A stretch of 64,000 nucleotides of DNA from an uncultured delta proteobacterium (GCA_963769935.1 CAVYNY010000007.1:96001-160000); one strand, 5' to 3'; numbered from the stretch's first letter, positions 28,310 to 53,488 are shown. The notes: generated by a model not told the origin, from the letters alone. Made by a program: numbers and translations.

Positions 28310-29362
28310 ATGGCGCACAATATTGCCTTGATTCCAGGCGACGGCATCGGTAAGGAAGTAATACCGGCAGCAGTCCGGGTTCTGGATAGCCTGTCAAAGC
28401 GGCATGGCTTTGAAATGACCTATACCGAATTTCCTTTTTCCTGTGAGTATTATTTAAAGACCGGCAAAATGATGCCGGAGGATGGCATCGATAAACTTCG
28501 CAATTTCGATGCCATTTTCCTGGGCGCCGTTGGGGACCCCGAGGTTTCCGACCATGTTTCCTTATGGGGTCTGCTGCTCCCGATCCGGCGCCGGATGCAG
28601 CAGTATGTCAATGTCCGGCCCGTCAGGCTGCTGCCCGGCATATCCTCACCGCTCGCCAACCGCACCTCGGAAGATATCGACTTTATCGTGGTGCGCGAAA
28701 ATAATGAAGGCGAATACTCGGAAATCGGCGGCCGTCTTTACAGCGGTACAGATTCGGAGATGGTTGTCCAGGAAACCGTTTTCACCCGCAAGGGGGTGGA
28801 TCGCATTTTGCGGTACGCCTTCGAACTGGCCCGCAGTCGTCCGGAAAAGCATCTGACATCCGCCACCAAATCAAACGGCATCATCCACACCATGCCTTAC
28901 TGGGATGAGCGTTTCCGGGCCATATCCAAGGAATACCCGGAGGTTGCAGTCGATCAGTTCCATATCGATATTCTGACGGCCCACTTCGTGCAGCACCCCG
29001 ATTGGTTTGACGTCGTTGTCGGCAGCAACCTGTTTGGCGATATCCTGTCCGACCTTGGCCCCGCGATTGCCGGCAGTATTGGGATTGCCGCTTCTGCCAA
29101 TCTGAATCCCACCAAAGAATTTCCTTCCATGTTTGAGCCCGTCCACGGCTCAGCGCCTGATATCGCCGGCAAGGGCATTGCCAATCCCATCGGCGCCCTG
29201 TGGTCGGCCCAGATGATGCTGGAGTTTTTAGGAGAAGAAACGGCGGCGCGGGCCCTGATGAGTGCCATCGAAACCGCTACGGCCTCGAAAATTCTGACGC
29301 GGGACTTAGGCGGAGAGGCGACCACAAAATCGTTTACCGATGCCGTCATCCAAAACTTATAA
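28310..29362 (+). CDS. Tartrate dehydrogenase / D-malate dehydrogenase (decarboxylating), TtuC/DmlA family
   Basis: IPGDGIG, DHVSLWGLL, RENNEGEYS, SATKSNG, MPYWD, NLFGDILSD, FEPVHGSAPDI. Confidence 0.92.
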   Translation: MAHNIALIPGDGIGKEVIPAAVRVLDSLSKRHGFEMTYTEFPFSCEYYLKTGKMMPEDGIDKLRNFDAIFLGAVGDPEVSDHVSLWGLLLPIRRRMQQYVNVRPVRLLPGISSPLANRTSEDIDFIVVRENNEGEYSEIGGRLYSGTDSEMVVQETVFTRKGVDRILRYAFELARSRPEKHLTSATKSNGIIHTMPYWDERFRAISKEYPEVAVDQFHIDILTAHFVQHPDWFDVVVGSNLFGDILSDLGPAIAGSIGIAASANLNPTKEFPSMFEPVHGSAPDIAGKGIANPIGALWSAQMMLEFLGEETAARALMSAIETATASKILTRDLGGEATTKSFTDAVIQNL

Positions 29363-29373
29363 AGGGTGGACAA

Positions 29374-31602
29374 ATGAAATCAAAACGCTTCGAAAATCTG
29401 GCCAAGCGCCCCGTCAACCAGGAAACATTTATTAAACCCTGGCCGGAAACCGGACTGGCGGCCATGGAAAGCCCCCTTGATCCGGCCCCCGGTCTTAAGC
29501 TAGTCAATGGTCGGGTTGTAGAGATGGACGGCGTTGCCCGTGAAAATTTCGATATCATCGATCATTTCATCGTCGATCATGCGCTTGACCTGGCGATGGC
29601 GGAAAAGGCCCTGGCCACACCGTCGCTTGAAATCGCCCATATGCTGGCGGACATCAATGTTTCGCGGGCCGAGGTTCTTGGACTTGTCGGCGGCTGTACG
29701 CCCGCCAAACTGGTCGACATCGTCCAGCAGATGAATGTGCTGGAAATGATGATGGGGCTTGCCAAAATGCGGGCGCGCCGGACACCGGCCAATCAAGCCC
29801 ATGTGACCAATCGCAAAGAGCACCCGGCGCTGCTGGCGGCGGACGCTGCCGAAGCGGCCCTGCGCGGCTTTCATGAAATTGAGACAACCATCGGCGTTAC
29901 ACGCTATGCGCCGCTCAATGCCCTGTCCATCCTGGTCGGATCCCAGACCGGGCGGGGAGGGACGCTGACCCAGTGTGCGGTGGAAGAAGCCACCAATTTA
30001 AGGCTTGGATTCAAAGGTCTGACCACCTATTCCGAGACACTTTCGGTTTACGGCACGGAAAGAACTTTTATCGACGGCGATGATACCCCTTGGTCCAAGG
30101 CCTTTTTAGCGGCCGCCTACGCCAGTCGGGGTGTTAAAATCCGCTTTACTTCCGGTACGGGTGCCGCCGCTTTGATGGGACATTCCGAAGGCAAGTCCAT
30201 GCTGTTTTTAGAGGCGCGTTGCCTGCTGACCACCAAGGGCGCCGGCAGCCAGGGAACCCAGAACGGTTCGATCAGCTGTATCGCACTGCCCGAGTCCCTT
30301 CCGGGCGGGGTGCGTACGGTTCTGGCCGAAAATCTGATTGCAGCCATGCTGGGTCTGGAGGTGGCATCGGGCAACGATGCCCTGGCCTCCCAATCGGAAA
30401 TGCGCAAGAGCGCCAAACTCATGCTGCAATTTATTCCCGGCACCGACTTTATCACTTCCGGCTACGGGGCGATCCCGCGCTATGACAACATGTTCGGCGG
30501 CGGCAACTTCGACGTCAGTGAAATGGATGACTGGCTGGTGCTGCAGCGCGATATGCAGGTTGACGGCGGTATGGTGCCGGTGAAAGAGTCCGACGCTTTG
30601 CAGGTGCGTGAACGCGCCGCCCGGGCCATCCAGGCGGTCTTTGCCGCCTTTGGTTTTCCCGCCATCAGCGAGACCGAGGTTGCAGCCGCCGTCGAGGCCT
30701 ACAACAGTGAAGACATGCCCGACCGCGATAAGGTGGCTGATATTGAAGCCGCCGCCAGACTGCTGCACGGGCCGCTGACCGTCGTCGATGTCATCGCGGC
30801 CCTGGAAAAGGCCGGATTTCATGATGTTGCCGCCCCGGTTTTGGAGCTGCAGCGGCAGCGGGTCGTCGGCGACTACCTGCAGCCGTCGGCTGTTTTCGAC
30901 AAGAATTTTCAGGTGGTCAGCGCCCTGACCGATCCCAATGACTATCGGGGGCCGGGCACAGGCTACCGGGTTGAGGGGGATCGCTGGTCGGTTCTGCAAA
31001 ACCTGCCCCAGGCTTGGGACCCGCGTGCTTATCTGGACAGAATCAGCTCGGCCGGAGTTGAAAGCTGGCTGGAAGAAGGGCTGGCCGCCGCCGAAACCGG
31101 CGATCGTCCCGAGGTGGTTGTCGCGCTGGATCCGGCCTTTGGGGTTAAGATTCATCAAACCATCGGCGGGCTGGATCTGCGGGATGTGATCAGGGCCATT
31201 CTCGCGGGCATCGCTGAAGAGGGGCTGCCGGCAAGACTGGTGCGGGTGTATCACACGGCAGACTGTGCATTCATCGGCCATGCCGGCGCAAAATTGAGCG
31301 GATCCGGTGTTGCCATCGGCATTCAATCCAAGGGAACCACCGTCATTCATCAACGGGATTTGGCGCCTTTGGAGAATCTGGAGCTTTTTCCCCAGGCTCC
31401 CAACATGGAGCTGGAAACCTATCGCAGCATTGGCCGCAACGCCGCCCGTTATGCCGGCGGCAAACCGGCCTCACCGGTAGCTGTTAAAATCGACAACACG
31501 GCACGGTTGCGCTTGATCGTTCAGACCACCCTGCTGCAGCTGCTGGCCACCCGGCAGATTCAAAGCGGCCGGGCCCCGTGCGAGTTGCATGCCCGCTTAT
31601 AA
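29374..31602 (+). CDS. Adenosylcobalamin-dependent diol/glycerol dehydratase, fused large + medium subunits
   Basis: Residues 1-~555 are colinear with PduC/DhaB1 (SKRFE.LAKRPVNQ, QAHVTN, GDDTPWSK, YDNMF). The C-terminal ~180 aa are PduD-like (PAFG, SGSG..IGIQSKGTTVIHQ, LELFPQAP). Confidence 0.95.
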   Translation: MKSKRFENLAKRPVNQETFIKPWPETGLAAMESPLDPAPGLKLVNGRVVEMDGVARENFDIIDHFIVDHALDLAMAEKALATPSLEIAHMLADINVSRAEVLGLVGGCTPAKLVDIVQQMNVLEMMMGLAKMRARRTPANQAHVTNRKEHPALLAADAAEAALRGFHEIETTIGVTRYAPLNALSILVGSQTGRGGTLTQCAVEEATNLRLGFKGLTTYSETLSVYGTERTFIDGDDTPWSKAFLAAAYASRGVKIRFTSGTGAAALMGHSEGKSMLFLEARCLLTTKGAGSQGTQNGSISCIALPESLPGGVRTVLAENLIAAMLGLEVASGNDALASQSEMRKSAKLMLQFIPGTDFITSGYGAIPRYDNMFGGGNFDVSEMDDWLVLQRDMQVDGGMVPVKESDALQVRERAARAIQAVFAAFGFPAISETEVAAAVEAYNSEDMPDRDKVADIEAAARLLHGPLTVVDVIAALEKAGFHDVAAPVLELQRQRVVGDYLQPSAVFDKNFQVVSALTDPNDYRGPGTGYRVEGDRWSVLQNLPQAWDPRAYLDRISSAGVESWLEEGLAAAETGDRPEVVVALDPAFGVKIHQTIGGLDLRDVIRAILAGIAEEGLPARLVRVYHTADCAFIGHAGAKLSGSGVAIGIQSKGTTVIHQRDLAPLENLELFPQAPNMELETYRSIGRNAARYAGGKPASPVAVKIDNTARLRLIVQTTLLQLLATRQIQSGRAPCELHARL

Positions 31603-31641
31603 AGCCAAAATAAATTGGAAGTAATACAAAGGAGTGTAAAT

Positions 31642-32013
31642 ATGGTCCAGGATAATGTGACGACTTTCACCGGACGTGCTTTGCAGGAGCTGTCGATAGA
31701 GAAGGTGCTCAGCGGTGAATTGACTGCCGAAGATTTTCGCATCAGTGCCGACACGTTGCGAAAACAGGCGGATGCTGCCGCATCCGGCGGATATCGGCAG
31801 CTGGCTGAAAACCTGCGCCGGGCGGCGGAGCTGACCTGCATATCCAACGAAGAGGTGCTGGACATTTACAACCAATTGCGTCCGGGACGTTCGAATTACA
31901 AAGCGCTGATTGCTTTGAGCGAGCGCCTCGAAAATGAATATCGGGCGTATCTGACGGCTGCGATGGTGCGAGAAGCGGCCGAAGTGTATCTGGAGCGTGG
32001 AATCGTTCAGTAG
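31642..32013 (+). CDS. Diol dehydratase small subunit (PduE-like)
   Basis: T.TGR.L.ELS.E.VLSG..TAEDFRI, NLRRAAELT, IYN.LRP.RS, EAAEVY..RG; AAGGAG RBS. Confidence 0.93.
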   Translation: MVQDNVTTFTGRALQELSIEKVLSGELTAEDFRISADTLRKQADAAASGGYRQLAENLRRAAELTCISNEEVLDIYNQLRPGRSNYKALIALSERLENEYRAYLTAAMVREAAEVYLERGIVQ

Positions 32014-32132
32014 GCGGTGATTTAGATCTCGTTCAGTTTTCAGCAAGTTTCCTCTTCATTCAAACTGGTCGTCTCGGCGCTTAACTGCTTGGGCTGACAC
32101 TGAAACCTTTCATCGGGATAAGGAGACAGAAT

Positions 32133-33119
32133 ATGAAATACCACTATTTAGGCAACACCGGCATCCGGGTATCCGGTCTGTGCATGGGAACCATGACGTT
32201 CGGCCGGGAGGCGGATAAAGATGCTGCGCGGGCCATCTTCAATCAATGCCGGGATGCGGGCATCAATTTTTTTGACTGCGCCAATGTTTACAGCCACGGC
32301 AAGGCGGAGACTATTCTGGGTGAGCTGATTTCCGACTGCCGGGAGGATCTGGTCGTCACCTCTAAGTTCGCGGGCTCCATGGGCTCCGGGCCGAATACCG
32401 ACGGCGCTTCCCGGCGCCATTTGATGGGCTCGCTGGAGGCCAGTTTAAAGCGCCTGAAAACCGATTATATTGACATCTATTTTCTGCACCGGTTTGACGA
32501 GCACACCCCGCTGGAGGAAACCCTGCGGGCGCTGGACGATGTCGTGGCCCAGGGCAAGGTTCGCTACACGGGGGTCAGCAACTTTGCGGCCTGGCAGATC
32601 GCCAAGGCGCTGGGCGTGTCCGCGCGCAACGGCTGGACATCGTTTCACTGCGTGCAGCCCATGTACAACCTGGTAAAACGCCAGGCGGAAGTTGAAATTC
32701 TGCCCCTGGCCGAATCCGAGAATCTCGCGGTGATCAGCTACAATCCCCTGGGAGGGGGAATCCTGAGCGGAAAATACGGCCCGGACCGCACGACCGGGCA
32801 GGGACGTCTGACCGGAGACGACATGTATCGGAGGCGCTACGGCGAGCAGTGGATGTACGCCGCCGCCGTGAAGTTTACGCAATTTGCGCGGGACAAAGGG
32901 TATCATCCGGTTTCTCTGGCAGTGGCCTGGGTGGCCCATCACCCGGCGGTGACCGCCCCGATCATCGGCGCCCGCAATGTCGAGCAGTTAAAAGACTCGC
33001 TGCAAGCCGCCGATATTCAAATGAGTCCGGATCTTTATGCCGAGATCTGCCGGCTGACGCCCGCACCGCCTCCAGCCACCGATCGGTCCGAAGACCGATT
33101 TGACCCGGAAAAAACTTAG
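32133..33119 (+). CDS. Aldo/keto reductase
   Basis: LCMGTMTFG, D.ANVY, SLKRLKTDYIDIY, GKVRYTGVSN, PIIGARN. Confidence 0.93.
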   Translation: MKYHYLGNTGIRVSGLCMGTMTFGREADKDAARAIFNQCRDAGINFFDCANVYSHGKAETILGELISDCREDLVVTSKFAGSMGSGPNTDGASRRHLMGSLEASLKRLKTDYIDIYFLHRFDEHTPLEETLRALDDVVAQGKVRYTGVSNFAAWQIAKALGVSARNGWTSFHCVQPMYNLVKRQAEVEILPLAESENLAVISYNPLGGGILSGKYGPDRTTGQGRLTGDDMYRRRYGEQWMYAAAVKFTQFARDKGYHPVSLAVAWVAHHPAVTAPIIGARNVEQLKDSLQAADIQMSPDLYAEICRLTPAPPPATDRSEDRFDPEKT

Positions 33120-33204
33120 AAATGGTTTTGAAACCCGAGATCGCCTCCAAACAGGCGTTGGCAGCTTAAGGTTTCAGGTGTCGGGAGCAGCCTTGCCGGA
33201 ATTT

Positions 33205-34213
33205 TTAACTGTACAGCGACGCACTGCGTCCTTTGCCGGCCGACTCCGGATTGACGCAGCTGATCATGGGCCGGCCGTTTAAGGCGTTAATCAGATTACG
33301 GGCAGCCCGTTCCGCCATTTTTGCGCGGGTTTTACTTGTGGCGCTGCCGATGTGAGGAAGGACCGTTACCTGGGGTAAAGCCAGCAGCGGATGGTCACCC
33401 CGCATGGGCTCCGGATCGGTTACATCCAGCCCGGCGCCTGCAATCTGCCCGTCTTTTAATGCGTCCAGCAAAGCCGCCTGGTCGACGGTCTGACCCCTGG
33501 CCGAATTTATCAGCATTGCCGACGGTTTCATCAGCCTCAACTCATTTGCCCCGATATAATGATAAGTTTCGGCAGATAGGGGCAAATGCAAGCTGATAAA
33601 ATCGCTCTGGCCCAACAGCGTTTCTTTATCGACATAGCGGGCACCGAACTCCTGTTCGGCCGGCGTGTTGCGGGTGAAATCATGGTACAAAATAGTCATG
33701 TTGAAGCCTATCGCCCGCCGGGCCACCTCCCGGCCGATACGACCCAGGCCGATAATCCCCAGCGTCGCATGATGAACGTCCGTGCCGAGATTTTCAAGCA
33801 TCCCTCTTTCAGGCGTCCAGCGATCCTGTTTGACCCACTCCACCATCTCCGCCAATCGGCGGGCGGAGGCCAGGATTAAGGCAAACGCCAGGTCGGCTGT
33901 TGTTTCAGTCAGCACATCCGGTGTGTTTCCAACCGGAATACCGGCCGCGGTGCAGGCAGCAATGTCAATATTGTCATAACCGACCGCCTGGTTGCTGACG
34001 GCTTTAACGGCCGGGCAGGCTTCCAGCAGCCGGGCATCGACTTTAATGTCAGTGGTTGTCAGCAACCCGGTACAATCCGCAAACAGATTCAACTGTACAT
34101 CTCTGGGCATCAATATTTTTTCCTGCCAGACATGCAGCTCGCAAACATTCCCGCAATAAGTTCAATCCTTCATCCGCGATGATGCGGGATACGTAGACTT
34201 TTGGTTTGGTCAT
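33205..34213 (-). CDS. D-2-hydroxyacid dehydrogenase (glyoxylate/hydroxypyruvate reductase-like), frameshift near 34148
   Basis: 5' part MTKPKVYVSRII from ATG 34213 lies in another frame. Main ORF has AVGYDNID, NTPDVLTETTAD, GLGRIG, INSARG, LDVTDPEP, PHIGSA. Confidence 0.88.
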
Positions 34214-34240
34214 TTTCGTCAGATCTCTGAGCGTAGAGTT

Positions 34241-34371
34241 TTAGTTGTGTTTTCTTTGCATTTTATGCAAAAATATTTTCGTCACGAAAACACGAAATCT
34301 TGAAATCACGAAATTATTCATCTCTACTTTTAGTGTTTTCGTCTCTTCGTGCTTTCGTGATTAATTTGTCC
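34241..34371 (-). repeat. Dispersed palindromic repeat, copy 4
   Basis: Reverse complement reads ggacaaattaatcacgaaagcacgaag...tttcgtgttttcgtgac...gcataaaatgcaaagaaaacacaa, closely matching copy 1. Confidence 0.85.
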
Positions 34372-34373
34372 AT

Positions 34374-35465
34374 TTATCTTATCGCCTTTCCGTTTTCAAC
34401 GTCGAAAAGATGCAGATTATCGATGCTCGGTTCGACCACGAGGTTGCTGTGCGCTTTGATTTGGCTCTTGCGGCCCACCGCGGCAATTAAACTGAAACTG
34501 CCGGCGTTGAAATCCACGTAGGTTTCATTGCCGATGGGCTCAACCACTTCGACGGTGCCCTGAATGGTTTTACCCGGGCTGTGCTCGCCGGAGACTTTGA
34601 GGTCTTCCGGCCGAACGCCGACAACGATCTGTTTGTGTTTGTAGTCGGCAAGCTGCTTGGATTTTTCCGGCGGCAGATCGATGCGAACCTCGCCCGCCTG
34701 CAGGCAGGCGCTATCTGCCCGGCCGTTGAGTTCGGCATCGAAGAAGTTCATGGCCGGGCTGCCGATAAATCCACCGACGAACTTGTTGGCGGGGGTGTCG
34801 TAGAGTTCAAGGGGGGAGCCGATTTGTTGGATCAGGCCGTCGCGCATGACCACAATCCGATCGCCCATGGTCATGGCTTCAATCTGGTCGTGGGTCACAT
34901 ACACGGCGGTGGTGGCCAGGCGTTCATGCAGTTTTTTCAACTCCAGCCGGGTCTGAACCCGGAGCTTGGCATCCAGATTGGACAGCGGTTCATCGAACAA
35001 AAAAACCTCGGGTTTTCTCACGATGGCGCGGCCTACCGCCACCCGTTGGCGTTGACCTCCTGAAAGCTGTTTGGGTTTGCGGGATAAAAGCGGCTGGATG
35101 CCGAGTATCTCGGCTGCTTCCTGGACGCGCTTTTTGACTTCGTCCTTGGGCCGTTTGCGCATCTCCAGCGAAAACGCCATGTTGTCGAACACGGTCATGT
35201 GGGGATAGAGTGCATAATTCTGAAATACCATGGCGATGTTGCGGTCCTTGGCCGGCAATCGGTTGATGAGGTTGTCTCCAATGTAAACATCTCCGCTGGT
35301 AATGCTTTCGAGACCTGCGATCATTCGCAGCGTGGTGGTTTTGCCGCAGCCGCTGGGCCCTACCAGAACCACAAACTCCTTGTCCTTAATGGACATATTA
35401 AAGTTGTCGACCGCAACGACTTCGTCAAAATGCTTGCAAACGTTTTCTAACCGTACTTCTGCCAT
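34374..35465 (-). CDS. CUT1 sugar ABC transporter ATP-binding protein (MalK/UgpC-like)
   Basis: GPSGCGKT, VFQNYALYPHM, LSGGQRQR, DEPLSNLDAKLR. Confidence 0.95.
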   Translation of the reverse strand: MAEVRLENVCKHFDEVVAVDNFNMSIKDKEFVVLVGPSGCGKTTTLRMIAGLESITSGDVYIGDNLINRLPAKDRNIAMVFQNYALYPHMTVFDNMAFSLEMRKRPKDEVKKRVQEAAEILGIQPLLSRKPKQLSGGQRQRVAVGRAIVRKPEVFLFDEPLSNLDAKLRVQTRLELKKLHERLATTAVYVTHDQIEAMTMGDRIVVMRDGLIQQIGSPLELYDTPANKFVGGFIGSPAMNFFDAELNGRADSACLQAGEVRIDLPPEKSKQLADYKHKQIVVGVRPEDLKVSGEHSPGKTIQGTVEVVEPIGNETYVDFNAGSFSLIAAVGRKSQIKAHSNLVVEPSIDNLHLFDVENGKAIR

Positions 35466-35472
35466 ATTGGGT

Positions 35473-36312
35473 TCACTCCTTTAACGCGCCCGTCATGCCG
35501 GCGACGTAATGTTCTACAAAAAAGGAATACACCAGAGCTACCGGTACCGAGGCGCACAGGGCGCCGGCCATCAGAGAGCCCCAGGAGTAAATATCCCCCC
35601 TGACCAGTTCGGTGACCAGCCCGATTGCAACCGTCTTCTTGGCCGTACTGGAGATAAAAACCAGGGCGTAAAGATACTCATTCCACGAGAGCGTGAAGCA
35701 GAAAATCCCGGCTGAAAGAACCCCGGGCAGGCACAGGGGCAGAATGATTTTGCGAAAGATCTTGATTCGGCTGGCGCCGTCGATCATGGCGCATTCCTCC
35801 ATCTCCTTGGGAATGGATTTAAAGTATCCCATCAGTAGCCAGGTACAGAACGGAATCAGAAACGTCGGATAGGTCAACACCAGGGCCCAGAGTGAGTCCC
35901 ACAGATGCAACTTGAAAATAATATGGGCCAGCGGGATGAACAAAATTGTCTGGGGGACGAGGTATCCCAGAAAGATGGCCACACCGGTGGGGCCCGAGGT
36001 TTTGAACCGCAGCCGTTGAATGGCATAGGCAGCCAGCAGACTAGCCGCCAATGAGATCACTGTGGCGGCAATGGCCACGAAAAATGTATTGGCCATCCAG
36101 CGCAGAAAGATGGTCTCCGTGAAGAGCTTGACGATATTGCTGAGGGTCCAGGTGTGGATGTAAAACGGGTTGAGGCTGAGATTGTAAAGCTCGTTGTCGG
36201 ATTTGAAGACCGTGTTGAACATCCAGTAAAAGGGAAACAGAAGGAAGATCAGGTACAGCACCAGCGGCACATAAAACTTCAACAGCTTTGATCCGGCACG
36301 TTCGATTGCCAT
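35473..36312 (-). CDS. CUT1 ABC transporter permease (MalG-like)
   Basis: Hydrophobic ORF with EECAMIDGAS (EAA loop) and SWNEYLYA. Confidence 0.93.
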   Translation of the reverse strand: MAIERAGSKLLKFYVPLVLYLIFLLFPFYWMFNTVFKSDNELYNLSLNPFYIHTWTLSNIVKLFTETIFLRWMANTFFVAIAATVISLAASLLAAYAIQRLRFKTSGPTGVAIFLGYLVPQTILFIPLAHIIFKLHLWDSLWALVLTYPTFLIPFCTWLLMGYFKSIPKEMEECAMIDGASRIKIFRKIILPLCLPGVLSAGIFCFTLSWNEYLYALVFISSTAKKTVAIGLVTELVRGDIYSWGSLMAGALCASVPVALVYSFFVEHYVAGMTGALKE

Positions 36313-36315
36313 TGC

Positions 36316-37236
36316 TCAATCCTCTTTTTTCAAAAAAACGAAGGCGATAAATACACAGGCGACCAGGATGGGCAGCATAAAATTGGAGATGGCCGCGCCT
36401 TCGCCGAAATGGCCTCCCTGCATGGCCCGCTGATAGGAAAGCGTTCCGAAGATATGAGTGGCGCCGGCCGGCCCGCCTTTGGTAATGATCCAGACCAACT
36501 GGAAATCCGCAAAGGTCCAGATGGTTGAAAAAACCGTTACCACCGTGAGCAGCGGCGTGAGCAGCGGCAGCGTGATGCGCCGGAATTTTTTCCAGGCGCC
36601 GGCACCGTCGATATCTGCAGCTTCGTAAAGTTCGGGACTGATCGTCTGCAGTCCCGCCAGCAACCCGATGGTAAAAAAGGGGATGCCGCGCCAGACATTG
36701 GCTGCGATCAGAGACCAGCGAGCGTTCCAGGGATCGCCCAGAAAATCGATATAGTGTTCGATGATACCCAGCTTAATCAAAAGCCAGGAAATCCCGCTGA
36801 AGGTGGAGTCATAAAGCCACCAGAAACAGATGGCGCTCAGGGCCGTGGGAATGATCCAGGGCAGCAGAATGATCGCCCGCATAAACCCTTTGCCTCTGAA
36901 GTCGCGGTTGAGGATCACGGCCAGTCCAATACCCAGGATGGCTTTCAATATTACCGCGACGATGGTATAGAGGAACGTATTGAATACGGTCAACCAAAAA
37001 CTGGGATCCCGCAGCAGCCAAGCGTAATTTTCGAAGCCGACAAATTTACCTTCACGTCCCACGATGGTATCGGTAAAACCGAGCCACAGGCCCAGCAGGA
37101 AGGGATAGGCCAGGAAGACCAAAAGCAGCAACTCGGCCGGTGCGACAAATATAAATCCCAGGACAGTGGGGTTCTCCAAGGCCCGCGACAGCCAGGTGGT
37201 CTTTAGCTCTTGCTCCCTTACGGCAACTGCGTCCAC
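36316..37236 (-). CDS. CUT1 ABC transporter permease (MalF-like)
   Basis: FVGFENY, LYEAADIDGA, FRRITLPLL. Confidence 0.93.
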   Translation of the reverse strand: MDAVAVREQELKTTWLSRALENPTVLGFIFVAPAELLLLVFLAYPFLLGLWLGFTDTIVGREGKFVGFENYAWLLRDPSFWLTVFNTFLYTIVAVILKAILGIGLAVILNRDFRGKGFMRAIILLPWIIPTALSAICFWWLYDSTFSGISWLLIKLGIIEHYIDFLGDPWNARWSLIAANVWRGIPFFTIGLLAGLQTISPELYEAADIDGAGAWKKFRRITLPLLTPLLTVVTVFSTIWTFADFQLVWIITKGGPAGATHIFGTLSYQRAMQGGHFGEGAAISNFMLPILVACVFIAFVFLKKED

Positions 37237-37401
37237 GTTTTCACCTCCCGGTCAGCCGTATGATAAAAAATTAATGCCATATTCTCTTCCGTTCCAGAGC
37301 GCTGTCTTTGCGTGCCCTGTGATGGCAGCGGGAGGGGCGCTGCCGGCTATTCGCCGGGCAGCCGCAGCCCCTACCCGCTGATTTCTGCGACCGTTGTATT
37401 A

Positions 37402-38748
37402 TTACCTGTAAGCCCTGACAATGGCTTTTTCGGCGTTGTCGATGGCCCGATCTGCCGAAACTCCGCGCGCGCAGTAATTGGCAAACAGATCGACCACCAC
37501 ATACTCGGCCATTACCGCGGCGGAGGCCGGTCCGATCGGCCCTTCGTAGCCGTTGGGCAGCATGTTTTTGATGCAGTCGCGATAGACCGTGTGTTTGGGA
37601 TCTTCGGTCCAGACCGGCAGGTTGCGATAGGCCTTCAGCGACGGGGTGACATAGCCGCGCATGGCGTTGATCCAGGGTCCGGCCTGTGGTTCTTCCATCA
37701 TGAACATCAGAAAATGCTTGGCGGCATTGGGATAACTGGTGTGCTTGAAGATGAAGGCCGGATCGAATAGATGCAGCTCGGTCGGATGGCCGACCGGCCC
37801 CACCGGCGGATGTTGATGATAGGTATCGGTGGCAATATCCGCCCATTTGGGATTATTCTTGGCGGCGTAATAAATGCTGATTCCGTTGTTGGTGGCGGAG
37901 ATCTGGTTTGCGAGATAGACTTTGTTGTTGTTCGGATCCTGCCAGGAAGCGACCCCGTCAACCATGGCGTTGTCGTAAAGGTCCTTCATGGCATCCAGCG
38001 CCATGCGGGTCTCTTTGCTGTTGATCGCCGGGGACCCGTCCTTGTTGACCGTCTTGGCGCCGAAAGCCCACAGAAAACCGTGGGCCCAGTTGTTGCCGTC
38101 TCCAACGGAATGGCCCAGCGCAAAACCGACCGGGTGTCCTATGCTCTTGAGCTTTTTGCAGCAACTGATGAAATCATCCATGTTTACCGGCATCTCCTGA
38201 TAACCGGCATCGTTGACCCAACTCTTGCGGTAGACAATGGCCTGTCCGGGTCCGCCGATGGGAATATCAATCCAGCGTTTGGTGGCCGGATTAATGCCAT
38301 ACTTCAAACACACATCTTCCCATCCACCGTACTTTTGGCCCAGATATTCGGCGATGTCGGTGACATCCACCAGCTTATCCGGATAGAGGAAGGGGTCGTC
38401 ATGCCATCCCAGGACAATATCGGGACCGGCGCCGACGGCAGCCGACATGGCGGCCTTGGGCCGGACGTCTTCCCAGGCCAGATATTCATTGATTACTTTG
38501 CCGCCGGTAGCCTCTTCCCATTTGGCGCAATTGGCTTCCCATAGATCCTTGTCGGCGCCGACAAATACGCTCCACCGCAGTACGTTCAAAGTTGGAGCTT
38601 TTTCGACGGCCAGTTTCGGCGGAGTGGCTGCCAAAGCCTTCTTGGCCAGCGGACCCAAGGGGCCGGCAAGCACTGCGGCACCGGCCAGGCCGGCGCCCGT
38701 TGTTTTGATGAAATCCCTGCGCGTCATGTTGTTATCCTGTTTTTTCAT
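37402..38748 (-). CDS. CUT1 ABC substrate-binding protein with Tat signal
   Basis: TRRDFIK twin-arginine motif, SBP_bac_1/8-like body, GAAAGGAGA RBS before ATG 38748. Confidence 0.9.
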   Translation of the reverse strand: MKKQDNNMTRRDFIKTTGAGLAGAAVLAGPLGPLAKKALAATPPKLAVEKAPTLNVLRWSVFVGADKDLWEANCAKWEEATGGKVINEYLAWEDVRPKAAMSAAVGAGPDIVLGWHDDPFLYPDKLVDVTDIAEYLGQKYGGWEDVCLKYGINPATKRWIDIPIGGPGQAIVYRKSWVNDAGYQEMPVNMDDFISCCKKLKSIGHPVGFALGHSVGDGNNWAHGFLWAFGAKTVNKDGSPAINSKETRMALDAMKDLYDNAMVDGVASWQDPNNNKVYLANQISATNNGISIYYAAKNNPKWADIATDTYHQHPPVGPVGHPTELHLFDPAFIFKHTSYPNAAKHFLMFMMEEPQAGPWINAMRGYVTPSLKAYRNLPVWTEDPKHTVYRDCIKNMLPNGYEGPIGPASAAVMAEYVVVDLFANYCARGVSADRAIDNAEKAIVRAYR

Positions 38749-39373: not shown

Positions 39374-41047
39374 ATGACCTGGCGCAGCAGACAAATACTT
39401 GAACGACCGGAGTGGTCCATGAACCGCGGTCTTTTTAAGGCCATGGGATACAGCGATTACGATCTGGACCGTCCCCTGATCGGCATTGCCAACTCCTGGA
39501 ACCGGGTGGTTCCGGGACATTACAACCTGAATCAGGTTTCGGAGTTCGTCAAACAGGGAATCCGCCAGGCCGGTGGGACCCCGGTGGAATTCGGGGTGAT
39601 CGCGGCCTGTGACGGCATCGCCCAGGGCCATGCCGGCATGCATTACATCCTGCCGACCCGCGATTTGATTGCCAATGATATCGAAATGATGGTGGAAGCC
39701 CACCGGCTGGATGCCGTCGTGATGCTGGGTTCCTGCGACAAAATCGTCCCCGCCATGCTGATGGCGGCTGCCAGACTGGATCTGCCCGCCATTATCGTGG
39801 TGGGGGGACCGATGGAAGGCGGCTGCCAGTTTGACGGTCGTTCCGCCGATATCACCTCTCTGACGGAAGGGCTGGGAATGTTGAAAGCCGGCAAAATCGA
39901 TGATCAGAATTACCACAATCTGGAAGACTGCGCCGGGCCGACCTGTGGGTCATGCTCTTTTCTCGGAACGGCCAACACCATGTGTTGTGTGGCTGAAGCC
40001 ATGGGACTTTCGCTTCCCGGAAGTGCTACCATTCCGGCAACTTATGCCGATCGCTGGCGGGCTGCCCAGGAATCCGGGCGCCAGATCATGGCGTTGGTAA
40101 AGCAGGGAATCACGGCGCGCCGGATCATCAATCAAAAAGGCATCGAAAACGGGATTCGCCTCAGCACCGCCATCGGCGGTTCGACCAATGTTGCGCTGCA
40201 CATCCCGGCTATCGGATATGAGGCCGACTGCGAAATCACGATGGATCTCTTTGAGGAATTATGCCGCAGCACGCCGCACATTGCCAAAATGAACCCGGCC
40301 GCTGCCCCCAATGTTCCGGATTTTCACCACGCGGGCGGCGTACCGGCGGTTATGAAAGAATTGCTTCCCATTCTGCATGCCGATGCCTTGACTGTTACCG
40401 GCCGGAGTGTGGCCGAAAACCTTGCCGCTGCAGGCACCCCCGACCGCAGGATAATAAAGACGATGGCGGATCCATGGAGCAGGGAAGGCGGACTTGCCGT
40501 ACTGCGCGGCAATCTGGCGCCCAATACGGCGGTCACCAAACCCGCGGCCATTCATCCGGACATGCGTGCCTTTACCGGCAAAGCCCATTGTTTTAACTCC
40601 GAGGAAGATGCCAATCAGGCGATTCTGGCCGGCAAGGTGACGGAAGGCGAGGTCATCGTGATTCGATATGAGGGACCCAAAGGGGGACCCGGTATGCGGG
40701 AAATGTACAAAGCCATGAAACTGCTCTATGGCCGGGGGTTGGCCCTGAAGACGGCCCTGGTCACCGACGGCCGGTTTTCCGGCACGAACAACGGCTGCTT
40801 CGTTGGGCACGTGTCGCCCGAAGCGGCCGAAGGCGGGCCGTTGGCCATTGTCGAAAACGGCGATGAAATCAGCATCGATATCCCCGATCGCAAATTGCAC
40901 CTGAACCTTTCCGACCGGCAAATCCAGGAGCGGCTGGCCCGCTGGCGGCGGCCGGAACCCAAATTCAAGCGCGGCTATCTGGCGTTGTACTCGCGATTGG
41001 CGGAGTCGGCGGATAAAGGCGCCATCATTCGACATAAAATTGAGTAA
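39374..41047 (+). CDS. IlvD/Edd-family Fe-S dehydratase (dihydroxy-acid or sugar-acid dehydratase)
   Basis: [17 protein letters not shown]...[34 protein letters not shown]. Confidence 0.93.
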
Positions 41048-41139
41048 AAAATCCCGGTCTGGAGGACCATGTTTTCAATGTTCGAATAAACTGATCAATA
41101 TCCATAATTTTAGGCATTTTAGGCATTTGATAATTTGCC

Positions 41140-42444
41140 ATGGACAACATTGTCGTCATCGCAGATGATTTAACAGGAGCCGCTGACACGGGTGTTCAGT
41201 TCTGTCCCTTTTTTGAAGATACAACCCTGGTTTCTTATCGACAATTGCGGCGTGTCCTGGGACCGTCTCCGGCCTCTGCTTCACGGGCGGCTGCGATCTA
41301 CACGAACAGCCGCGCTTTGGCAGCCGAAGCAGCCAGACATCGCCTGGTCTCCGTGGCGCATGAGCTTGCCGGGGAACCGCCGATTTGGATTTACAAAAAA
41401 ATCGATTCCTGTATGCGCGGCAATGTGGGACCGGAGGCCGACGCGCTGCTGGATGCACTTGGCTACGAGGTGAGCTTCATCACGCCGGCGTTTCCTGAAA
41501 TGGGACGAACTACCGAAAATGATATTCACCGGGTTCACGGCATCCCGCTGGATCAAACTGAAATTGCGCGGGATCCGATCACCCCCGTAAAAGATTCCCA
41601 TCTGTCCCGGATCGTGCAATCCGAGAGCAAGTACCCCGTCGGTCATGTGGCGGCAGCTTATCTGAACGGGACTGAAAAAGAACTGCAGGCGGAAGTCGAT
41701 CGGCAGGTTCGGCGCGGTTTCAGGCACCTGGTATTTGATGCCGCCAACCGGTATCATCTGGACCGGATTGCCGGACTGGTTTATTCCTTTCCCGGCAGGG
41801 TGCTGCCGGTGGGATCTGCGGGACTGGCGGGCAGCCTCACCGAACCGTTATGCCCCGGCAGGAAGGCCGTGAAGGCGGGTCTAAAAATCGATGGAGCCGG
41901 CTGCAATTTGCTGGTTTGCGGCACAACATCGGAAGTAACCGCCCGGCAAATTGACAATCTGCTGCCGAGACATTCCTATGAATTAATTCAGTTGAGCTGC
42001 GGCATGCTGGCTGATCCGAATCGCAGGGATGACTTTTCGAAAACCGTGTCTGCGACGCACTCGATTTTATTTAAAAAAAATGTGGTCCTGACCATCGCGC
42101 CGCAGCAATTCACTCCAGCCGCTGACCAGCAGGCAGCTTTTCACCCGGAGGCCGCATCGATCGTCAGAGGGTTGGGTCTTTTCACGGCTGAAGTCATTGC
42201 GTTTTTCAAACCGCGCAATCTTTTTCTTACCGGAGGCGACACGGCTGATGCGGTTTTGACAGCGGTTGAAGCCGGCGGCATACGGATTCTGGGAGAAGTC
42301 GTGGCCGGTGTGGTGCAGGGTGAGCTATTCGGCGGGCCGCTGGCGGGATTGCCGGTTGTCACCAAAGCCGGCGCATTCGGACACGCAGACACGCTGGTTG
42401 CCCTTCATGAATATTGGCAAAACACATATGGAGTTGGCTTATGA
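41140..42444 (+). CDS. Four-carbon acid-sugar kinase, DUF1537 family (DtnK/DenK-like)
   Basis: IADDLTGAAD, YKKIDS.MRGN, PAFPEMGRT, LTGGDTA, VTKAGAFG. Confidence 0.92.
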   Translation: MDNIVVIADDLTGAADTGVQFCPFFEDTTLVSYRQLRRVLGPSPASASRAAAIYTNSRALAAEAARHRLVSVAHELAGEPPIWIYKKIDSCMRGNVGPEADALLDALGYEVSFITPAFPEMGRTTENDIHRVHGIPLDQTEIARDPITPVKDSHLSRIVQSESKYPVGHVAAAYLNGTEKELQAEVDRQVRRGFRHLVFDAANRYHLDRIAGLVYSFPGRVLPVGSAGLAGSLTEPLCPGRKAVKAGLKIDGAGCNLLVCGTTSEVTARQIDNLLPRHSYELIQLSCGMLADPNRRDDFSKTVSATHSILFKKNVVLTIAPQQFTPAADQQAAFHPEAASIVRGLGLFTAEVIAFFKPRNLFLTGGDTADAVLTAVEAGGIRILGEVVAGVVQGELFGGPLAGLPVVTKAGAFGHADTLVALHEYWQNTYGVGL

Positions 42445-43484: not shown

Positions 43485-43819
43485 AGGTTAAAGGTAAGGA
43501 TGAAGGAGAAAGGTTGGAAGATAGAAATTGATAAGATCAGAAGATAAGTAAATCAGAAGGTAGGAGGGTAAGAGGGTGCGAGGGTAAGAGATTGGAAAGC
43601 TGATCAGCTTGTGAGCGCTTAAGTTCGTAAGCTCTTAAGATCGTTAGCATCCAAGATTATTATAGATTTTTTCCCTATCAACTATGAGTAGCTACGAGCA
43701 GAGCTATGACCAATCAACTTAACCAGTCACCCCTTAAATTGACTCACCGATCGGGCAATCAACTTCAACAAACACAATAAACTAACAATAAACCAATAAC
43801 TCAACTACGGGAGGTTAAA

Positions 43820-44698
43820 ATGGAACGAATCGGATTCGTCGGACTGGGGATTATGGGCAAACCCATGGCCCGCAACCTGCTAAAGGCCGGTTATGATCTG
43901 GTGGTGCACAATCGCAGCCGGGCAGCGGTGGAAGAACTTGCCGCCGAAGGGGCGCAGGCGGCTTCGTCACCCAAAGAGGTTGCCGGGCAAAGCGATGTGG
44001 TCATTACGATGCTGCCGGACTCGCCTGACGTCGAACAGGTGGTGTTGGGACCGAACGGCGTCGTCGAAGGGATCCGATCGGGGAGCCTGTTTGTTGATAT
44101 GTCCACCATCGCACCCGGCACGGCCCGCACCGTTTACGACGCACTGAAAGCAAAAGGCGTGGAGGCTTTAGATGCGCCTGTTTCCGGCGGTGAAGTGGGC
44201 GCCAAAGAGGGTACCCTTTCCATCATGGTGGGCGGCACCCAAGCCGCTTTTCAGAGAGCCATGCCTGTCTTTGAAGTGATGGGGAAAAATATCGTCCTTA
44301 TCGGTGAGCCGGGCGCCGGACAGGTGACCAAAGCCTGCAATCAGATCGTGGTGGGTGTGACCATCCAAGCGGTTTCCGAAGCCCTGATCCTGGCTCGCAA
44401 GTCCGGGGTGGATCCCGCCAAAGTTCGCGAAGCGCTGCTGGGCGGGTTTGCCCAGAGCCGTATTCTCGACCTGCACGGTCAAAGAATTATTAATCGCACC
44501 TTTCAACCCGGATTCCGGGTGCGGCTGCACCGCAAGGATCTTGCCATCGCCCTGCAAACCGGACGTGAGGTTTCGCTGCCGCTGATGCTGACATCCCAGG
44601 TGGCGGAGCTGATGAATGCGCTGATTGCCAGAGGTGACGGTGATTTGGATCATTCAGGCTTGGCGCATCTGCTCGAGCAGATGGGAGGCGCGGAATAA
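43820..44698 (+). CDS. 2-hydroxy-3-oxopropionate (tartronate semialdehyde) reductase, GlxR/GarR-like
   Basis: GFVGLGIMG, DAPVSGG, GQVTKACNQI, LLGGFAQSRIL.LHG, F.PGFR..LH.KDL. Confidence 0.88.
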   Translation: MERIGFVGLGIMGKPMARNLLKAGYDLVVHNRSRAAVEELAAEGAQAASSPKEVAGQSDVVITMLPDSPDVEQVVLGPNGVVEGIRSGSLFVDMSTIAPGTARTVYDALKAKGVEALDAPVSGGEVGAKEGTLSIMVGGTQAAFQRAMPVFEVMGKNIVLIGEPGAGQVTKACNQIVVGVTIQAVSEALILARKSGVDPAKVREALLGGFAQSRILDLHGQRIINRTFQPGFRVRLHRKDLAIALQTGREVSLPLMLTSQVAELMNALIARGDGDLDHSGLAHLLEQMGGAE

Positions 44699-44804
44699 GA
44701 TTGAAAATTGAATATTTAAGGAATTCTATCATTTTTTTAATGAATATCGGGTGGCAATTCCTAAAAACTGAAAATATGAGCGGTTAAAGCGATTCAACGT
44801 TTGA

Positions 44805-44930
44805 AACGATCCTAACAACTACAACGATCCAAATTTATCCCATGAAATATACGCAGTATCAGCGAAGCGAATTTCATTAGGACGATCCAAACGATCTCAA
44901 CGATCTCAACGATCCAAACGAACTAAACCA
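44805..44930 (+). repeat. Short ~9-nt imperfect tandem repeats (AACGATCY core)
   Basis: aacgatcct, aacgatcca, gacgatcca-aacgatctc-aacgatctc-aacgatcca. Confidence 0.75.
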
Positions 44931-44954
44931 ATATCATCTATGAGGAGAGCCGAT

Positions 44955-45287
44955 ATGATTGTTGTTGCGAAACTGAAAGCCAAGGCCGGTGAAGAAGCCA
45001 AAATGGAAGCCGCCCTGCGGGGCATGGTTGTCAAGGTGGCTCAAGAGCAGGGAACACTGACCTATACCCTGCACCGAGACCGGCAGAATCCGTGCGTATT
45101 TATGTTTTACGAAAAGTACAAGGATGCCGCAGCGCTTAAAGCCCATAGCTCAACGCCCTATTTCAAGGAATTGTTCAAGTTCCTGGAACCCCTGCTGGAT
45201 GAAGCACCGGAAATCGGAATGTACGATGAGCTTACCCGGCTAAGAGACAATGTTTCTGGAAAGAGTGCGCCTGGAACCAGTTTGTAG
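44955..45287 (+). CDS. ABM (antibiotic biosynthesis monooxygenase)-fold protein
   Basis: MIVVAKLKAKAG...E.GTL.Y.LH...FMFYEKY.D..AL.AH..TPYF. Confidence 0.85.
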   Translation: MIVVAKLKAKAGEEAKMEAALRGMVVKVAQEQGTLTYTLHRDRQNPCVFMFYEKYKDAAALKAHSSTPYFKELFKFLEPLLDEAPEIGMYDELTRLRDNVSGKSAPGTSL

Positions 45288-45323
45288 CTGACACATGACA
45301 CCACCAAACAAGGAAATACCGCC

Positions 45324-46763
45324 ATGGGAAAACTCCCCTTGCATTATCAAACCATCACGGAGCTTGCCGACGGCATCCGCAACGGAGAAATTACTTCTGC
45401 TCAACTGGTACAAAATCTTCTGGAACGCATCGAATCACTTGATGGTCGGCTGAATGCCTTCCGGTTGACGTGTCCGGAAAAGGCCCTGGAACAGGCACAG
45501 GCGGCGGACCGCCAAATGAAAAATGGAAAGAATTCAGGGATCCTGCACGGGATTCCATACGCCGTCAAGGACCTGTTTGATGTCAAGGGACAGCCGACTG
45601 CGGCCGGCTCCAAACTGCTCGAAAAAAATATTGCCGCCCAAGATGCGCAGGCTGTCGGCAGGCTTTCACGGGCCGGAATGATTTTGGCGGGCAAAACCAA
45701 CACGGTGCAGTTTGCTTTCAGCGGGGTCGGCATCAATCACGATCACGGCACGCCTCACAATCCCTGGAGTCAAACCCATCATATTCCCGGCGGCTCCAGC
45801 AGCGGATCGGCGGTTGCGGTGGCGGCCGGGCTGGTTCCCATGGCCCTGGGAACGGATACCGGCGGCTCGGTGCGGGTGCCTGCCGCCCTATGCGGCACGG
45901 TTGGTCTAAAAACCACCGTAGGTCGCATCAGCCGGGCCGGCGTCTATCCGTTAAGCTGGACGCTGGATTCGATCGGTGTCTTTGCGCGCTCGGTGGAAGA
46001 TGCCGCCCTGGTTTATCAGTGCCTACAGGGCTCCGATGTCAACGATGAAATAACCCTGGGCCTAGCACCTCATGATGTCCTCAAGGATCTGAAAAAAGGT
46101 GTCAAAGGCCTTCGGCTGGCCTTCGCCGAATCGGTATTCTGGGAGGATGTCCACCCGGAAGTTGCCGGAGCCGTGCGAGCCTGCGGCCAAATATTTGAAG
46201 AGTTGGGGGCCACCGTCGGCAGCCTGGATTTCACCGAAGCTCAGGCAGCGCGCGAATTGAACCCGGGCGGTGTGATCATTGCCAGTGAAGGCTACACGCT
46301 GAACAAAAACTGGCTGGAGGAGCACTTCGATGAGCTGGATCCGGTCGTGGCCCACCGCATGATCAAAGGCCGCGACATTACCGCCGGCCAATACCTGCAA
46401 ACCAACTACCTTGCCCGACAACTGCGCGCCAAAGCCGGCAACACATTAAAAGAAGTGGATGCGCTGCTGGTACCTGCGACGCCTGTGCCCGCCCGTCCTG
46501 TGGCGGAGGTGGACACCGACATGGACAATTATCTGGCGCAGAACATCCGCTATCTGCGCAACACTTCCATCGGAAATATCCTGAATTTCTGCGGCTTGAG
46601 TCTGCCGTGCGGATTTACCGCCAGCGGTCTGCCCATCGGGCTTTTGATCTACGGTAAACCCTTCCGGGAAGATATTTTGCTTCGAGCCGGATATGCATTT
46701 CAGCAAGGCACCGATTGGCACAGGCACCTGCCGGATCTGTCGTGGGTTGATACAGGGCGGTAA
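45324..46763 (+). CDS. Amidase-signature family amidohydrolase
   Basis: AVKDL, PGGSSSGS, GTDTGGSVRVPA (Lys-cisSer-Ser triad motifs). Confidence 0.92.
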   Translation: MGKLPLHYQTITELADGIRNGEITSAQLVQNLLERIESLDGRLNAFRLTCPEKALEQAQAADRQMKNGKNSGILHGIPYAVKDLFDVKGQPTAAGSKLLEKNIAAQDAQAVGRLSRAGMILAGKTNTVQFAFSGVGINHDHGTPHNPWSQTHHIPGGSSSGSAVAVAAGLVPMALGTDTGGSVRVPAALCGTVGLKTTVGRISRAGVYPLSWTLDSIGVFARSVEDAALVYQCLQGSDVNDEITLGLAPHDVLKDLKKGVKGLRLAFAESVFWEDVHPEVAGAVRACGQIFEELGATVGSLDFTEAQAARELNPGGVIIASEGYTLNKNWLEEHFDELDPVVAHRMIKGRDITAGQYLQTNYLARQLRAKAGNTLKEVDALLVPATPVPARPVAEVDTDMDNYLAQNIRYLRNTSIGNILNFCGLSLPCGFTASGLPIGLLIYGKPFREDILLRAGYAFQQGTDWHRHLPDLSWVDTGR

Positions 46764-46788
46764 TCCTCTAAATGGAAAGGAGACCAGT

Positions 46789-47148
46789 ATGCCGCAAGTC
46801 GTCATTCATATGTCGGAGACCCGGGATCAGGGGGCAAAATCCCTTCTGGTAAAAGAAATTCGGCGGGCCATCTCAAAAACACTGGAGCTGGACACTATTA
46901 TCGGGCAGGTCATACTTTATGAAAGCCCGGTGGCCAATCGAGAAACGCATGCCGATCGCGATCCCAATTTCGTGTTTGTAGAAGTGTTCATGTATCCCGG
47001 GCGCGATCCGGCGCTGAAGCAAGAACTGATGGAGCGGTTCTTCATGTTGATCAACCGGCACATGGACGTTGATCCGAAAGACATCAATGCCGTCATTCAC
47101 GAAATTCCGAAGGAAGACTATTTTGGCGGGTTGATGAAACAGCATTGA
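46789..47148 (+). CDS. Tautomerase superfamily protein (two beta-alpha-beta units)
   Basis: Starts M-P (catalytic Pro1 after Met removal); GRDPALKQEL...DINAVIHE; AAGGAG RBS. Confidence 0.8.
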   Translation: MPQVVIHMSETRDQGAKSLLVKEIRRAISKTLELDTIIGQVILYESPVANRETHADRDPNFVFVEVFMYPGRDPALKQELMERFFMLINRHMDVDPKDINAVIHEIPKEDYFGGLMKQH

Positions 47149-50808: not shown

Positions 50809-50864
50809 AACGGAAAGATCAGGCCGGCAAGAATAATCAATAATTTGCCCAAAGGAGGTGCTCA

Positions 50865-52816: not shown

Positions 52817-52818
52817 GC

Positions 52819-53484: not shown

Positions 53485-53488
53485 ACCG

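Follow-up and report, generated by a model that had tools for sequence, protein, structure and literature searches.

A probable sugar-acid gene cluster of a sulfate-reducing bacterium with an optional B12-dependent dehydratase that may act on small diols

Diol and glycerol dehydratases dependent on adenosylcobalamin (AdoCbl) are textbook enzymes, known from a small number of loci in gut and enteric bacteria. Natural alpha-beta fusions occur in Mesorhizobium loti and Mycobacterium smegmatis (Liu et al. 2010, as summarised in a passage of the review PMC7674605), and enzyme inactivation is given there as a known limit in diol engineering. D-threonate and D-erythronate are degraded through a DUF1537 kinase (DtnK or DenK) and PdxA2 (Zhang et al. 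2016, as cited in a passage of PMC10971088), and parts of PMC10107998 and PMC10079672 describe IlvD/Edd enzymes with activity towards gluconate, xylonate, L-threonate and glycerate. Neither the dehydratase family nor its natural fusion nor the DUF1537/PdxA2 pair is new. Members of all these families lie together in a ~19-kb block (28310 to 47148) of a 64,000-nt stretch of DNA, referred to here as the window, from an uncultured delta proteobacterium (GCA_963769935.1 CAVYNY010000007.1:96001-160000). A first-pass annotation had proposed that the block encodes an undescribed pathway in which a B12 radical dehydratase acts on a C4 polyol or hydroxy-acid. All 16 genes that it listed were found where it had placed them and match the families it named (Table 1), and the 11-nt gap between the stop of the tartrate/D-malate dehydrogenase (TDH) gene and the start of the fused dehydratase gene (29374) was confirmed.

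Our preferred interpretation, held at a little less than an even chance, is that the block is a conserved cluster of a sulfate reducer, likely serving sugar-acid uptake and breakdown, with an optional, reactivase-free B12 enzyme that would act on glycerol or another C2-C3 diol made by the aldo-keto reductase (AKR). The host is a dsrA-bearing sulfate reducer whose genome is 96.7% complete (G000; genomes are numbered G, loci L and contigs of this genome C). A dehydratase-containing block was found in one further genome, G008, where the order is PA2779-TDH-dehydratase-gamma-AKR-(SDR)-2-hydroxyacid dehydrogenase (2HAD)-ABC-IlvD-DUF1537-PdxA2, as in the window except for one extra SDR gene. Because the order from PA2779 to PdxA2 is repeated, the block, judged by synteny, is more than a chance arrangement. 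The first-pass annotation had allowed that the dehydratase half and the kinase/PdxA2 half might be adjacent in this genome only, a doubt that G008 removes; there the DUF1537 gene lies 10.6 kb from the dehydratase.

Related loci also show the block without the dehydratase. In G018 TDH and the AKR of the same block are direct neighbours, the dehydratase being on another contig. The slot beside the AKR is dehydratase-free at six related loci (G018, G015, G013, G001, G010 and the metagenome locus L177), and at four of the last five KdgK, aldehyde:ferredoxin oxidoreductase or a DapA-like aldolase is encoded nearby; such neighbours of a dehydratase-free AKR were seen at L105, L108, L177 and L208. 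From the six empty slots and the direct junction in G018, the cluster core, as read from gene content, is ABC-IlvD-DUF1537-PdxA2 with AKR, 2HAD, tartronate semialdehyde reductase and amidase, and the B12 enzyme is an accessory cassette. Among 23 genomes of the genus, the own genome included, the dehydratase is carried by 7, TDH by 13, the binding protein by 7, DUF1537 by 9 and the tautomerase by 1; TDH is a variable member, mostly accompanied by dusB and Tct transporters. It had been suggested that the AKR handles the aldehyde product of the dehydratase. Since it is kept at dehydratase-free loci beside KdgK, aldehyde:ferredoxin oxidoreductase or the DapA-like aldolase, the AKR more likely acts before the dehydratase than after it.

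All three subunit domains (alpha, beta and gamma) of the AdoCbl-dependent diol/glycerol dehydratase family are present (PF02286, PF02288 and PF02287), and the window dehydratase is ~58% identical to canonical alpha subunits. In a quick tree of 92 rows, from which duplicate loci and matches of < 430 aligned residues had been dropped, it falls in an 88-row clade separate from the canonical enzymes (99% support), within a 37-row sub-clade. No paper on the substrate of this clade or on the window's gene combination was found in the open-access literature searched. A plasmid search gave 92 records, all < 60% over the whole protein and none an annotated clade member. Residues were compared over 36 near-clade and 51 sister-clade rows (87 in all) against three canonical rows. 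The catalytic and metal residues Q141, H143, E170, E221, Q296, D335 and S362, a list taken from a part of PMC7674605, are invariant in 36/36 near and 51/51 sister rows, as are the pocket residues T222, S301 and F374. The canonical Q336-T337-F338 loop is replaced in the window by A336-L337-A338 (Q336A/T337L/F338A, NDALA for NDQTF); A336 is present in 87/87 clade rows and Q336 in 3/3 canonical rows. Relative to the latter, Q336A, A375G, S377G and N369R/K are fixed (R or K at 369 in all 87 rows), and neither T337 nor F338 is kept in any row. The near clade is marked by F361T and R147 (36/36 rows), R174 occurs in 38 of 51 sister rows, and S264A/E265A is found in the window and its sub-branch; S264 and E265 are presumably K+-binding residues near adenine. 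Despite the few loci behind the textbook enzymes, Ala336 with a basic residue 369 was seen in 63 of 118 scorable family representatives, and no biochemical test of this branch was found in the open-access literature searched.

Engineered enzymes give some guide to this pocket. The Q336A mutant has a glycerol k_inact of 0.081 per min compared with 1.15 for the wild type (14-fold lower; a table of PMC7674605). On its own it favours 1,2-propanediol over longer diols, and longer diols and butanetriol require S301A in addition (passages of PMC9850924); the S301A/Q336A double mutant has also been used for pentanediol (a part of bioRxiv 10.64898/2026.06.05.730297). As S301 is kept in the window, and Q336A alone favours 1,2-propanediol, the pocket residues by themselves give no argument for a C4 substrate. 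Arg369 was considered as a marker of anionic substrates, an idea weakened by its presence in D301 'acid-pocket' rows too. A structure prediction (mean pLDDT 52.9, barrel < 50) was too poor to place the arginines and went unused.

Natural Q336A would lower suicide inactivation, so that a reactivase may be dispensable. No reactivase (PF08841) was found in the own genome, nor above cut-off in 54 of 55 clade-carrying genomes. It exceeded the cut-off in 3 of the 57 genomes searched, many of them incomplete metagenome-assembled genomes, each time beside a dehydratase of another clade. Neighbourhoods were scored at 83 dehydratase-query loci (89 clade loci, minus 6 retrieved via the IlvD query), and no reactivase or DhaT-like gene was seen near a clade dehydratase at any of them. 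The block itself has no microcompartment shell or dhaT/pduQ genes, shell genes being on another contig only. The own genome encodes CobS, two CobA and a PduO-like adenosyltransferase. The view that the dehydratase is distinct from pdu/dha enzymes was upheld: no reactivase was found, the clade pocket is remodelled, and sugar-acid neighbours recur, including the window's IlvD subfamily.

The two to three shell genes (C35 ~197100-200450, L222) adjoin a gene resembling ketopantoate hydroxymethyltransferase; an AKR, a sugar ABC system and an IclR regulator are encoded close by, and no known signature enzyme was recognised there. G008 has a second, more distant B12 dehydratase on its C14 (69000-74230; L104, L202); residue 300 of this enzyme is Asp (GGIDC), and the reactivase that goes with it is fragmented. 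In G024 a relative that looks intact is accompanied by a reactivase.

A sugar-acid gene lies within 10 kb at 43 of the 83 dehydratase loci (16/32 near, 27/51 sister), TDH is near the dehydratase at one, and DUF1537/PdxA2 is within 10 kb at none; by these neighbourhoods, the clade is linked to sugar-acid catabolism generally and not to the C4 branch. Short contigs are partly responsible for the 40 loci without a recognised sugar-acid neighbour. At 6 of 80 genome loci the next gene after alpha-beta encodes an IlvD of the window's subfamily (73-81% identical), with gamma coming after it at five of the six, and dehydratase genes adjoin IlvD at 7 of 80 IlvD loci. As these adjacencies fall on branches other than the window's in both the dehydratase and the IlvD tree, the phylogenies suggest more than one joining event. 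The IlvD subfamily was found in only 3 of 46 other clade-carrying genomes searched. Other contexts include lactonase-GntK-aldolase-DhaK-KdgK-dehydratase-Eda (L003-L005), DhaK upstream of the dehydratase (L002-L004), IclR-KdgK-aldolase-Tct-DGOK (L100), enolase-type dehydratases (24 of 51 sister loci), UxuA (L043) and inositol genes (L039). At L029 a near-clade member directly follows glpR-glpD-glpK. No sugar-acid neighbour was recognised at nine Pseudomonadota loci (the L014-L026 branch), and same-genus dehydratases at L009, L098 and L099 lie between OYE and nitroreductase genes.

At Anaerolineae loci (L012, L019, L021, L025 and L158) a levoglucosan-dehydrogenase-like gene precedes a dehydratase-ilvD-gamma unit, with IolE-like and ThuA genes. 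A glycyl-radical replacement of the dehydratase beside IlvD was considered at L146, where the candidate proved to be a helicase-domain protein. The sulfonate 2,3-dihydroxypropane-1-sulfonate was rejected as substrate, no sulfonate genes being recognised near the clade; HpfXYZ, which handles it, comprises an aldehyde dehydrogenase and a CoA ligase with no B12 enzyme, according to a passage of PMC11489063.

The window IlvD is a paralogue apart from the genome's four other IlvD-like proteins (33-49% identical). It passes TIGR00110, and its best-scoring structures are of dihydroxyacid dehydratase (DHAD) rather than of solved sugar-acid dehydratases; related loci have sugar-acid neighbours. From paralogy and context it is likely a sugar-acid dehydratase. 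The two-domain DUF1537 kinase gene adjoins the PdxA2-like gene, and a housekeeping-like PdxA is encoded elsewhere, on C22. Families and adjacency match those of the described pair; its tetronate specificity here is only presumptive, as DUF1537 scores 240.8 bits against a D-threonate kinase equivalog cut-off of 450 and the PdxA2-like protein 298.9 bits against 583 for D-threonate-4-phosphate dehydrogenase, these models being lineage-narrow, so that a score below cut-off lowers but does not exclude the function. Genes for the DapA-like aldolase and aldehyde:ferredoxin oxidoreductase, 86% and 83% identical to cluster-linked relatives, are side by side on C22. About 100 kb downstream is a second sugar-acid locus (C7 ~236400-247200, L223), encoding a nickel-pincer isomerase-like protein, KdgK, Eda, a zinc-type alcohol dehydrogenase, an SDR, a Tct transporter and a split UxaA/GarD-like protein.

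In the route proposed here, for which we infer every substrate, the ABC system would import aldonic acids and the IlvD paralogue would convert them to 2-keto-3-deoxy acids. The DapA-like aldolase, cluster-adjacent in relatives, would cleave these to pyruvate and a C2-C3 aldehyde, which might be oxidised by aldehyde:ferredoxin oxidoreductase or reduced to a diol by the AKR. The B12 enzyme would then act on the diol by its usual radical 1,2-shift, yielding 3-hydroxypropanal from glycerol, acetaldehyde from ethylene glycol or propanal from 1,2-propanediol. DUF1537/PdxA2 and TDH may form parallel tetronate and tartrate/D-malate branches, independent of the B12 enzyme. In favour of this route, the pocket is conserved, glp genes and DhaK occur next to some clade members, and the AKR has the partners named above.

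Several observations weigh against small diols. Changes beyond Q336A (T337L, F338A, F361T, N369R, A375G and S377G) might admit larger or anionic substrates. Aldehyde-handling genes lie within 6 kb at just 11 of the 83 clade loci (1 of 5 non-clade loci, a weak control), with iron-type alcohol dehydrogenase at none and aldehyde dehydrogenase at one. The aldolase gene is not in the block itself, and reducing, dehydrating and reoxidising an aldehyde would be a detour for a sulfate respirer. The dehydratase also occurs in operons with KdgK and Eda (L002, L004, L005, L031, L034, L035, L040, L061, L075 and L100), where a free diol is not expected; together with the scarcity of aldehyde-handling neighbours, this points towards glycerate or an aldonate as the direct substrate. 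The clade would then be a radical sugar-acid dehydratase, converting the C2/C3 diol of aldonates to a 2-keto-3-deoxy acid for KdgK/Eda (perhaps for IlvD-refractory epimers) or glycerate to malonate semialdehyde, which we consider unlikely, though the likeliest of the rival readings. Besides the sugar-acid genes at 43 of 83 loci, such a role fits the adjoining dehydratases of three other folds (IlvD, enolase-type and UxuA), the flanking lactonases or Tct carboxylate transporters (L003, L005, L035, L098, L061 and L100) and the presence of KdgK and aldolase with no other sugar-acid dehydratase recognised in the locus at L061, L100, L004 and L005. The new basic residues (R/K369, R147 and R174) would suit it, and TDH, tartronate semialdehyde reductase and 2HAD reactions all lead to glycerate, which is thus a point of convergence. 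However, S301, T222 and F374 are unchanged, R369, present in D301 rows too, does not have to be an anion-binding residue, the arginines could not be placed in the model, the nine Pseudomonadota rows have no sugar-acid neighbour, a MOFRL glycerate kinase is encoded elsewhere in the genome, and no characterised carboxylate-acting member of the family was found in the open-access literature searched. Broader still, and somewhat improbable in our estimation, the NDALA clade of sediment Desulfobacterales, Chloroflexota and Burkholderiales may be a reactivase-independent radical dehydratase of glycerate or aldonates that works in place of, or alongside, the IlvD, enolase-type and UxuA enzymes of Entner-Doudoroff-type pathways. 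If so, it would open a kinase-bypassing route from tetronate or glycerate at this locus.

The dehydratase might instead be a passenger, a stand-alone glycerol or diol enzyme in a variable slot near dusB and metabolically uncoupled from the cluster. The variability of the slot, the OYE/nitroreductase contexts of same-genus dehydratases, the rarity of the window IlvD subfamily among dehydratase carriers and the 40 of 83 loci with no recognised sugar-acid neighbour are consistent with this. We nevertheless regard it as decidedly unlikely, given its tandem, same-strand arrangement with TDH and AKR, the IlvD adjacency on separate branches of both trees and the presence of cluster genes in 6 of 7 dehydratase carriers compared with 5 of 16 non-carriers in the genus (Fisher P = 0.027, though kin are non-independent and large genomes favour both). 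Least probable, and very doubtful, is the C4 substrate of the first-pass annotation: D-erythronate or L-threonate would give (R)-malate semialdehyde and then D-malate, which TDH would convert to pyruvate and CO2, or else the substrate would be a tetritol, butanetriol or 3,4-dihydroxybutyrate, whose dehydration product the AKR would reduce. TDH does lie directly upstream in both the window and G008, DUF1537/PdxA2 is in the same block, the 336-338 loop is smaller than the canonical one, and engineered S301A/Q336A enzymes accept 1,2,4-butanetriol (a passage of PMC9850924). Yet the case rests on two genomes: of 83 loci, one has TDH near the dehydratase and none has DUF1537/PdxA2 within 10 kb, six related slots are dehydratase-free (in G018 with TDH next to the AKR and the dehydratase elsewhere), TDH mostly accompanies dusB and Tct, and S301 is retained. 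Among 80 metagenome IlvD loci, DUF1537 was present at 13 and the dehydratase at 7, never together, although most DUF1537 contigs end short of the slot. A PF11794/PF03241 flavoenzyme occurs at two loci of the IlvD subfamily with a DapA-like aldolase (L133 and L190, the latter also with an acyl-CoA dehydrogenase). We take this family to include both HpaB and 4-hydroxybutyryl-CoA dehydratase, a link that would favour a C4 substrate.

Table 1. Genes of the block, with positions in the window
Product	Position	Strand	Remarks
TDH, tartrate/D-malate dehydrogenase (decarboxylating) family	28310..29362	+	TIGR02089 575.8 bits (cut-off 470.4); closest PDB 3flk
B12-dependent diol-dehydratase-family alpha-beta fusion, 742 aa, NDALA clade	29374..31602	+	PF02286 + PF02288
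Dehydratase small (gamma) subunit, 123 aa	31642..32013	+	PF02287; ribosome-binding site at start
Aldo-keto reductase (AKR)	32133..33119	+	PF00248; core member, kept at dehydratase-free L105, L108, L110, L177, L206, L217
D-2-hydroxyacid dehydrogenase, glyoxylate/hydroxypyruvate reductase-like	33205..34213	-	Frameshifted near 5' end in own strain
CUT1-type ABC ATPase	34374..35465	-	UgpC/MalK models
ABC permease, MalG-like	35473..36312	-	PF00528
ABC permease, MalF-like	36316..37236	-	PF00528
Solute-binding protein with Tat signal	37402..38748	-	PF01547/PF13416, TIGR01409
IlvD/Edd dehydratase, likely sugar-acid dehydratase	39374..41047	+	TIGR00110 above cut-off
DUF1537 acid-sugar kinase	41140..42444	+	PF07005 + PF17042; PDB 4xfr/4xfm
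PdxA2-like dehydrogenase, second PdxA of genome	42441..43484	+	PF04166; PDB 4jqp/2hi1/6e85
2-hydroxy-3-oxopropionate (tartronate semialdehyde) reductase family	43820..44698	+	TIGR01505 above cut-off
ABM-family small protein	44955..45287	+	PF03992; recurrent at related loci
Amidase-signature hydrolase	45324..46763	+	PF01425; PDB relatives; recurrent in cluster at related loci
Pro-1 tautomerase-superfamily protein	46789..47148	+	PF14552; in 1/23 genus genomes (own one), not a conserved member

The 2HAD gene is on the opposite strand, as first described, but its frame is broken: from the ATG at 34213 it ends after 54 codons. Since the G008 orthologue reads through, and contigs of runs X2, X3 and X5 (two studies) have one base fewer at 34146 while X1, which may be the source sample, retains it, the frameshift is probably a strain allele. 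Other genes of this genome also align in two frames (IlvD at C10 192200-193900, PdxA at C22 508700-509600 and UxaA/GarD at C7 245600-247200), so its assembly may contain indel errors. The solute-binding protein has only weak closest PDB entries (E ~1e-4 to 5e-5). It and the permeases are 98-100% identical to those of G008 (L096, window 34374-38748) and the flanking enzymes 59-89%, a difference that suggests recent exchange of the transporter genes. The tautomerase has Pro-1 and matches the malonate semialdehyde decarboxylase entry 7tvk weakly (E 0.0055), and the gene was not found in the 22 other genus genomes; that it encodes such a decarboxylase is doubtful.

No cobalamin riboswitch or other RNA was matched in Rfam within the 64 kb, and a promoter/terminator scan was uninformative (18 against 14.5 expected; 24 against 23.9 expected). 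All 30 bins are covered by contigs from two sediment RNA libraries (one study), which bridge TDH-dehydratase and dehydratase-gamma-AKR; at stricter likeness, 22/30 and 17/30 bins of the neighbouring stretch were covered. Such contigs are not proof of transcription and were unused as evidence. Beyond the block, positions 47840-57004 resemble what we take to be a type VI secretion-type cluster (lipoprotein, TssK/TssL/TssM-like).

The locus adds a comparison of the cluster with and without the dehydratase, and a check of the C4 idea, which mostly fails. Near-identical blocks that have the cassette (G000, G008) or lack it (G018) make the locus well suited as a test case. It also suggests that a sulfate reducer of salt marsh or soil uses sugar acids. 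A natural fused, reactivase-free enzyme is of interest for engineering of 1,3-propanediol, 3-hydroxypropionate and 1,4-butanediol production, and a sugar-acid substrate, if true, would be new chemistry for the family.

Among described systems, the non- and semi-phosphorylative Entner-Doudoroff routes with promiscuous IlvD/Edd enzymes (SsDHAD and PuDHT; parts of PMC10107998 and PMC10079672) share with these loci an IlvD paralogue and, at related loci, KdgK, DapA-like aldolase, aldehyde:ferredoxin oxidoreductase and KduD-like genes. In contrast, the window IlvD scores nearer DHAD, and coupling to a B12 dehydratase is not mentioned in those parts. As in the DtnK/DenK and PdxA2 pathway, the window's DUF1537 gene overlaps that of the PdxA2-like protein (closest PDB entries 4xfr/4xfm and 2hi1/6e85), but this pair scores below the equivalog cut-offs, is accompanied by IlvD, an ABC importer and an amidase, and has no regulator in the block. 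The M. loti and M. smegmatis enzymes, compared by description only, likewise combine a fused alpha-beta chain with gamma, and the passage on them in PMC7674605 mentions neither sugar-acid context nor substrate tests. With the AdoCbl diol and glycerol dehydratases of Klebsiella oxytoca (PddABC, 1DIO) and K. pneumoniae (1IWP; fused 9VI2) the window enzyme shares the three subunit domains and the catalytic and metal residues. It differs from them in its natural alpha-beta fusion, in NDALA for NDQTF, N369R, F361T, A375G, S377G and S264A/E265A, in having no reactivase found and no pdu/dha neighbours, and in belonging to a separate 88-row clade.

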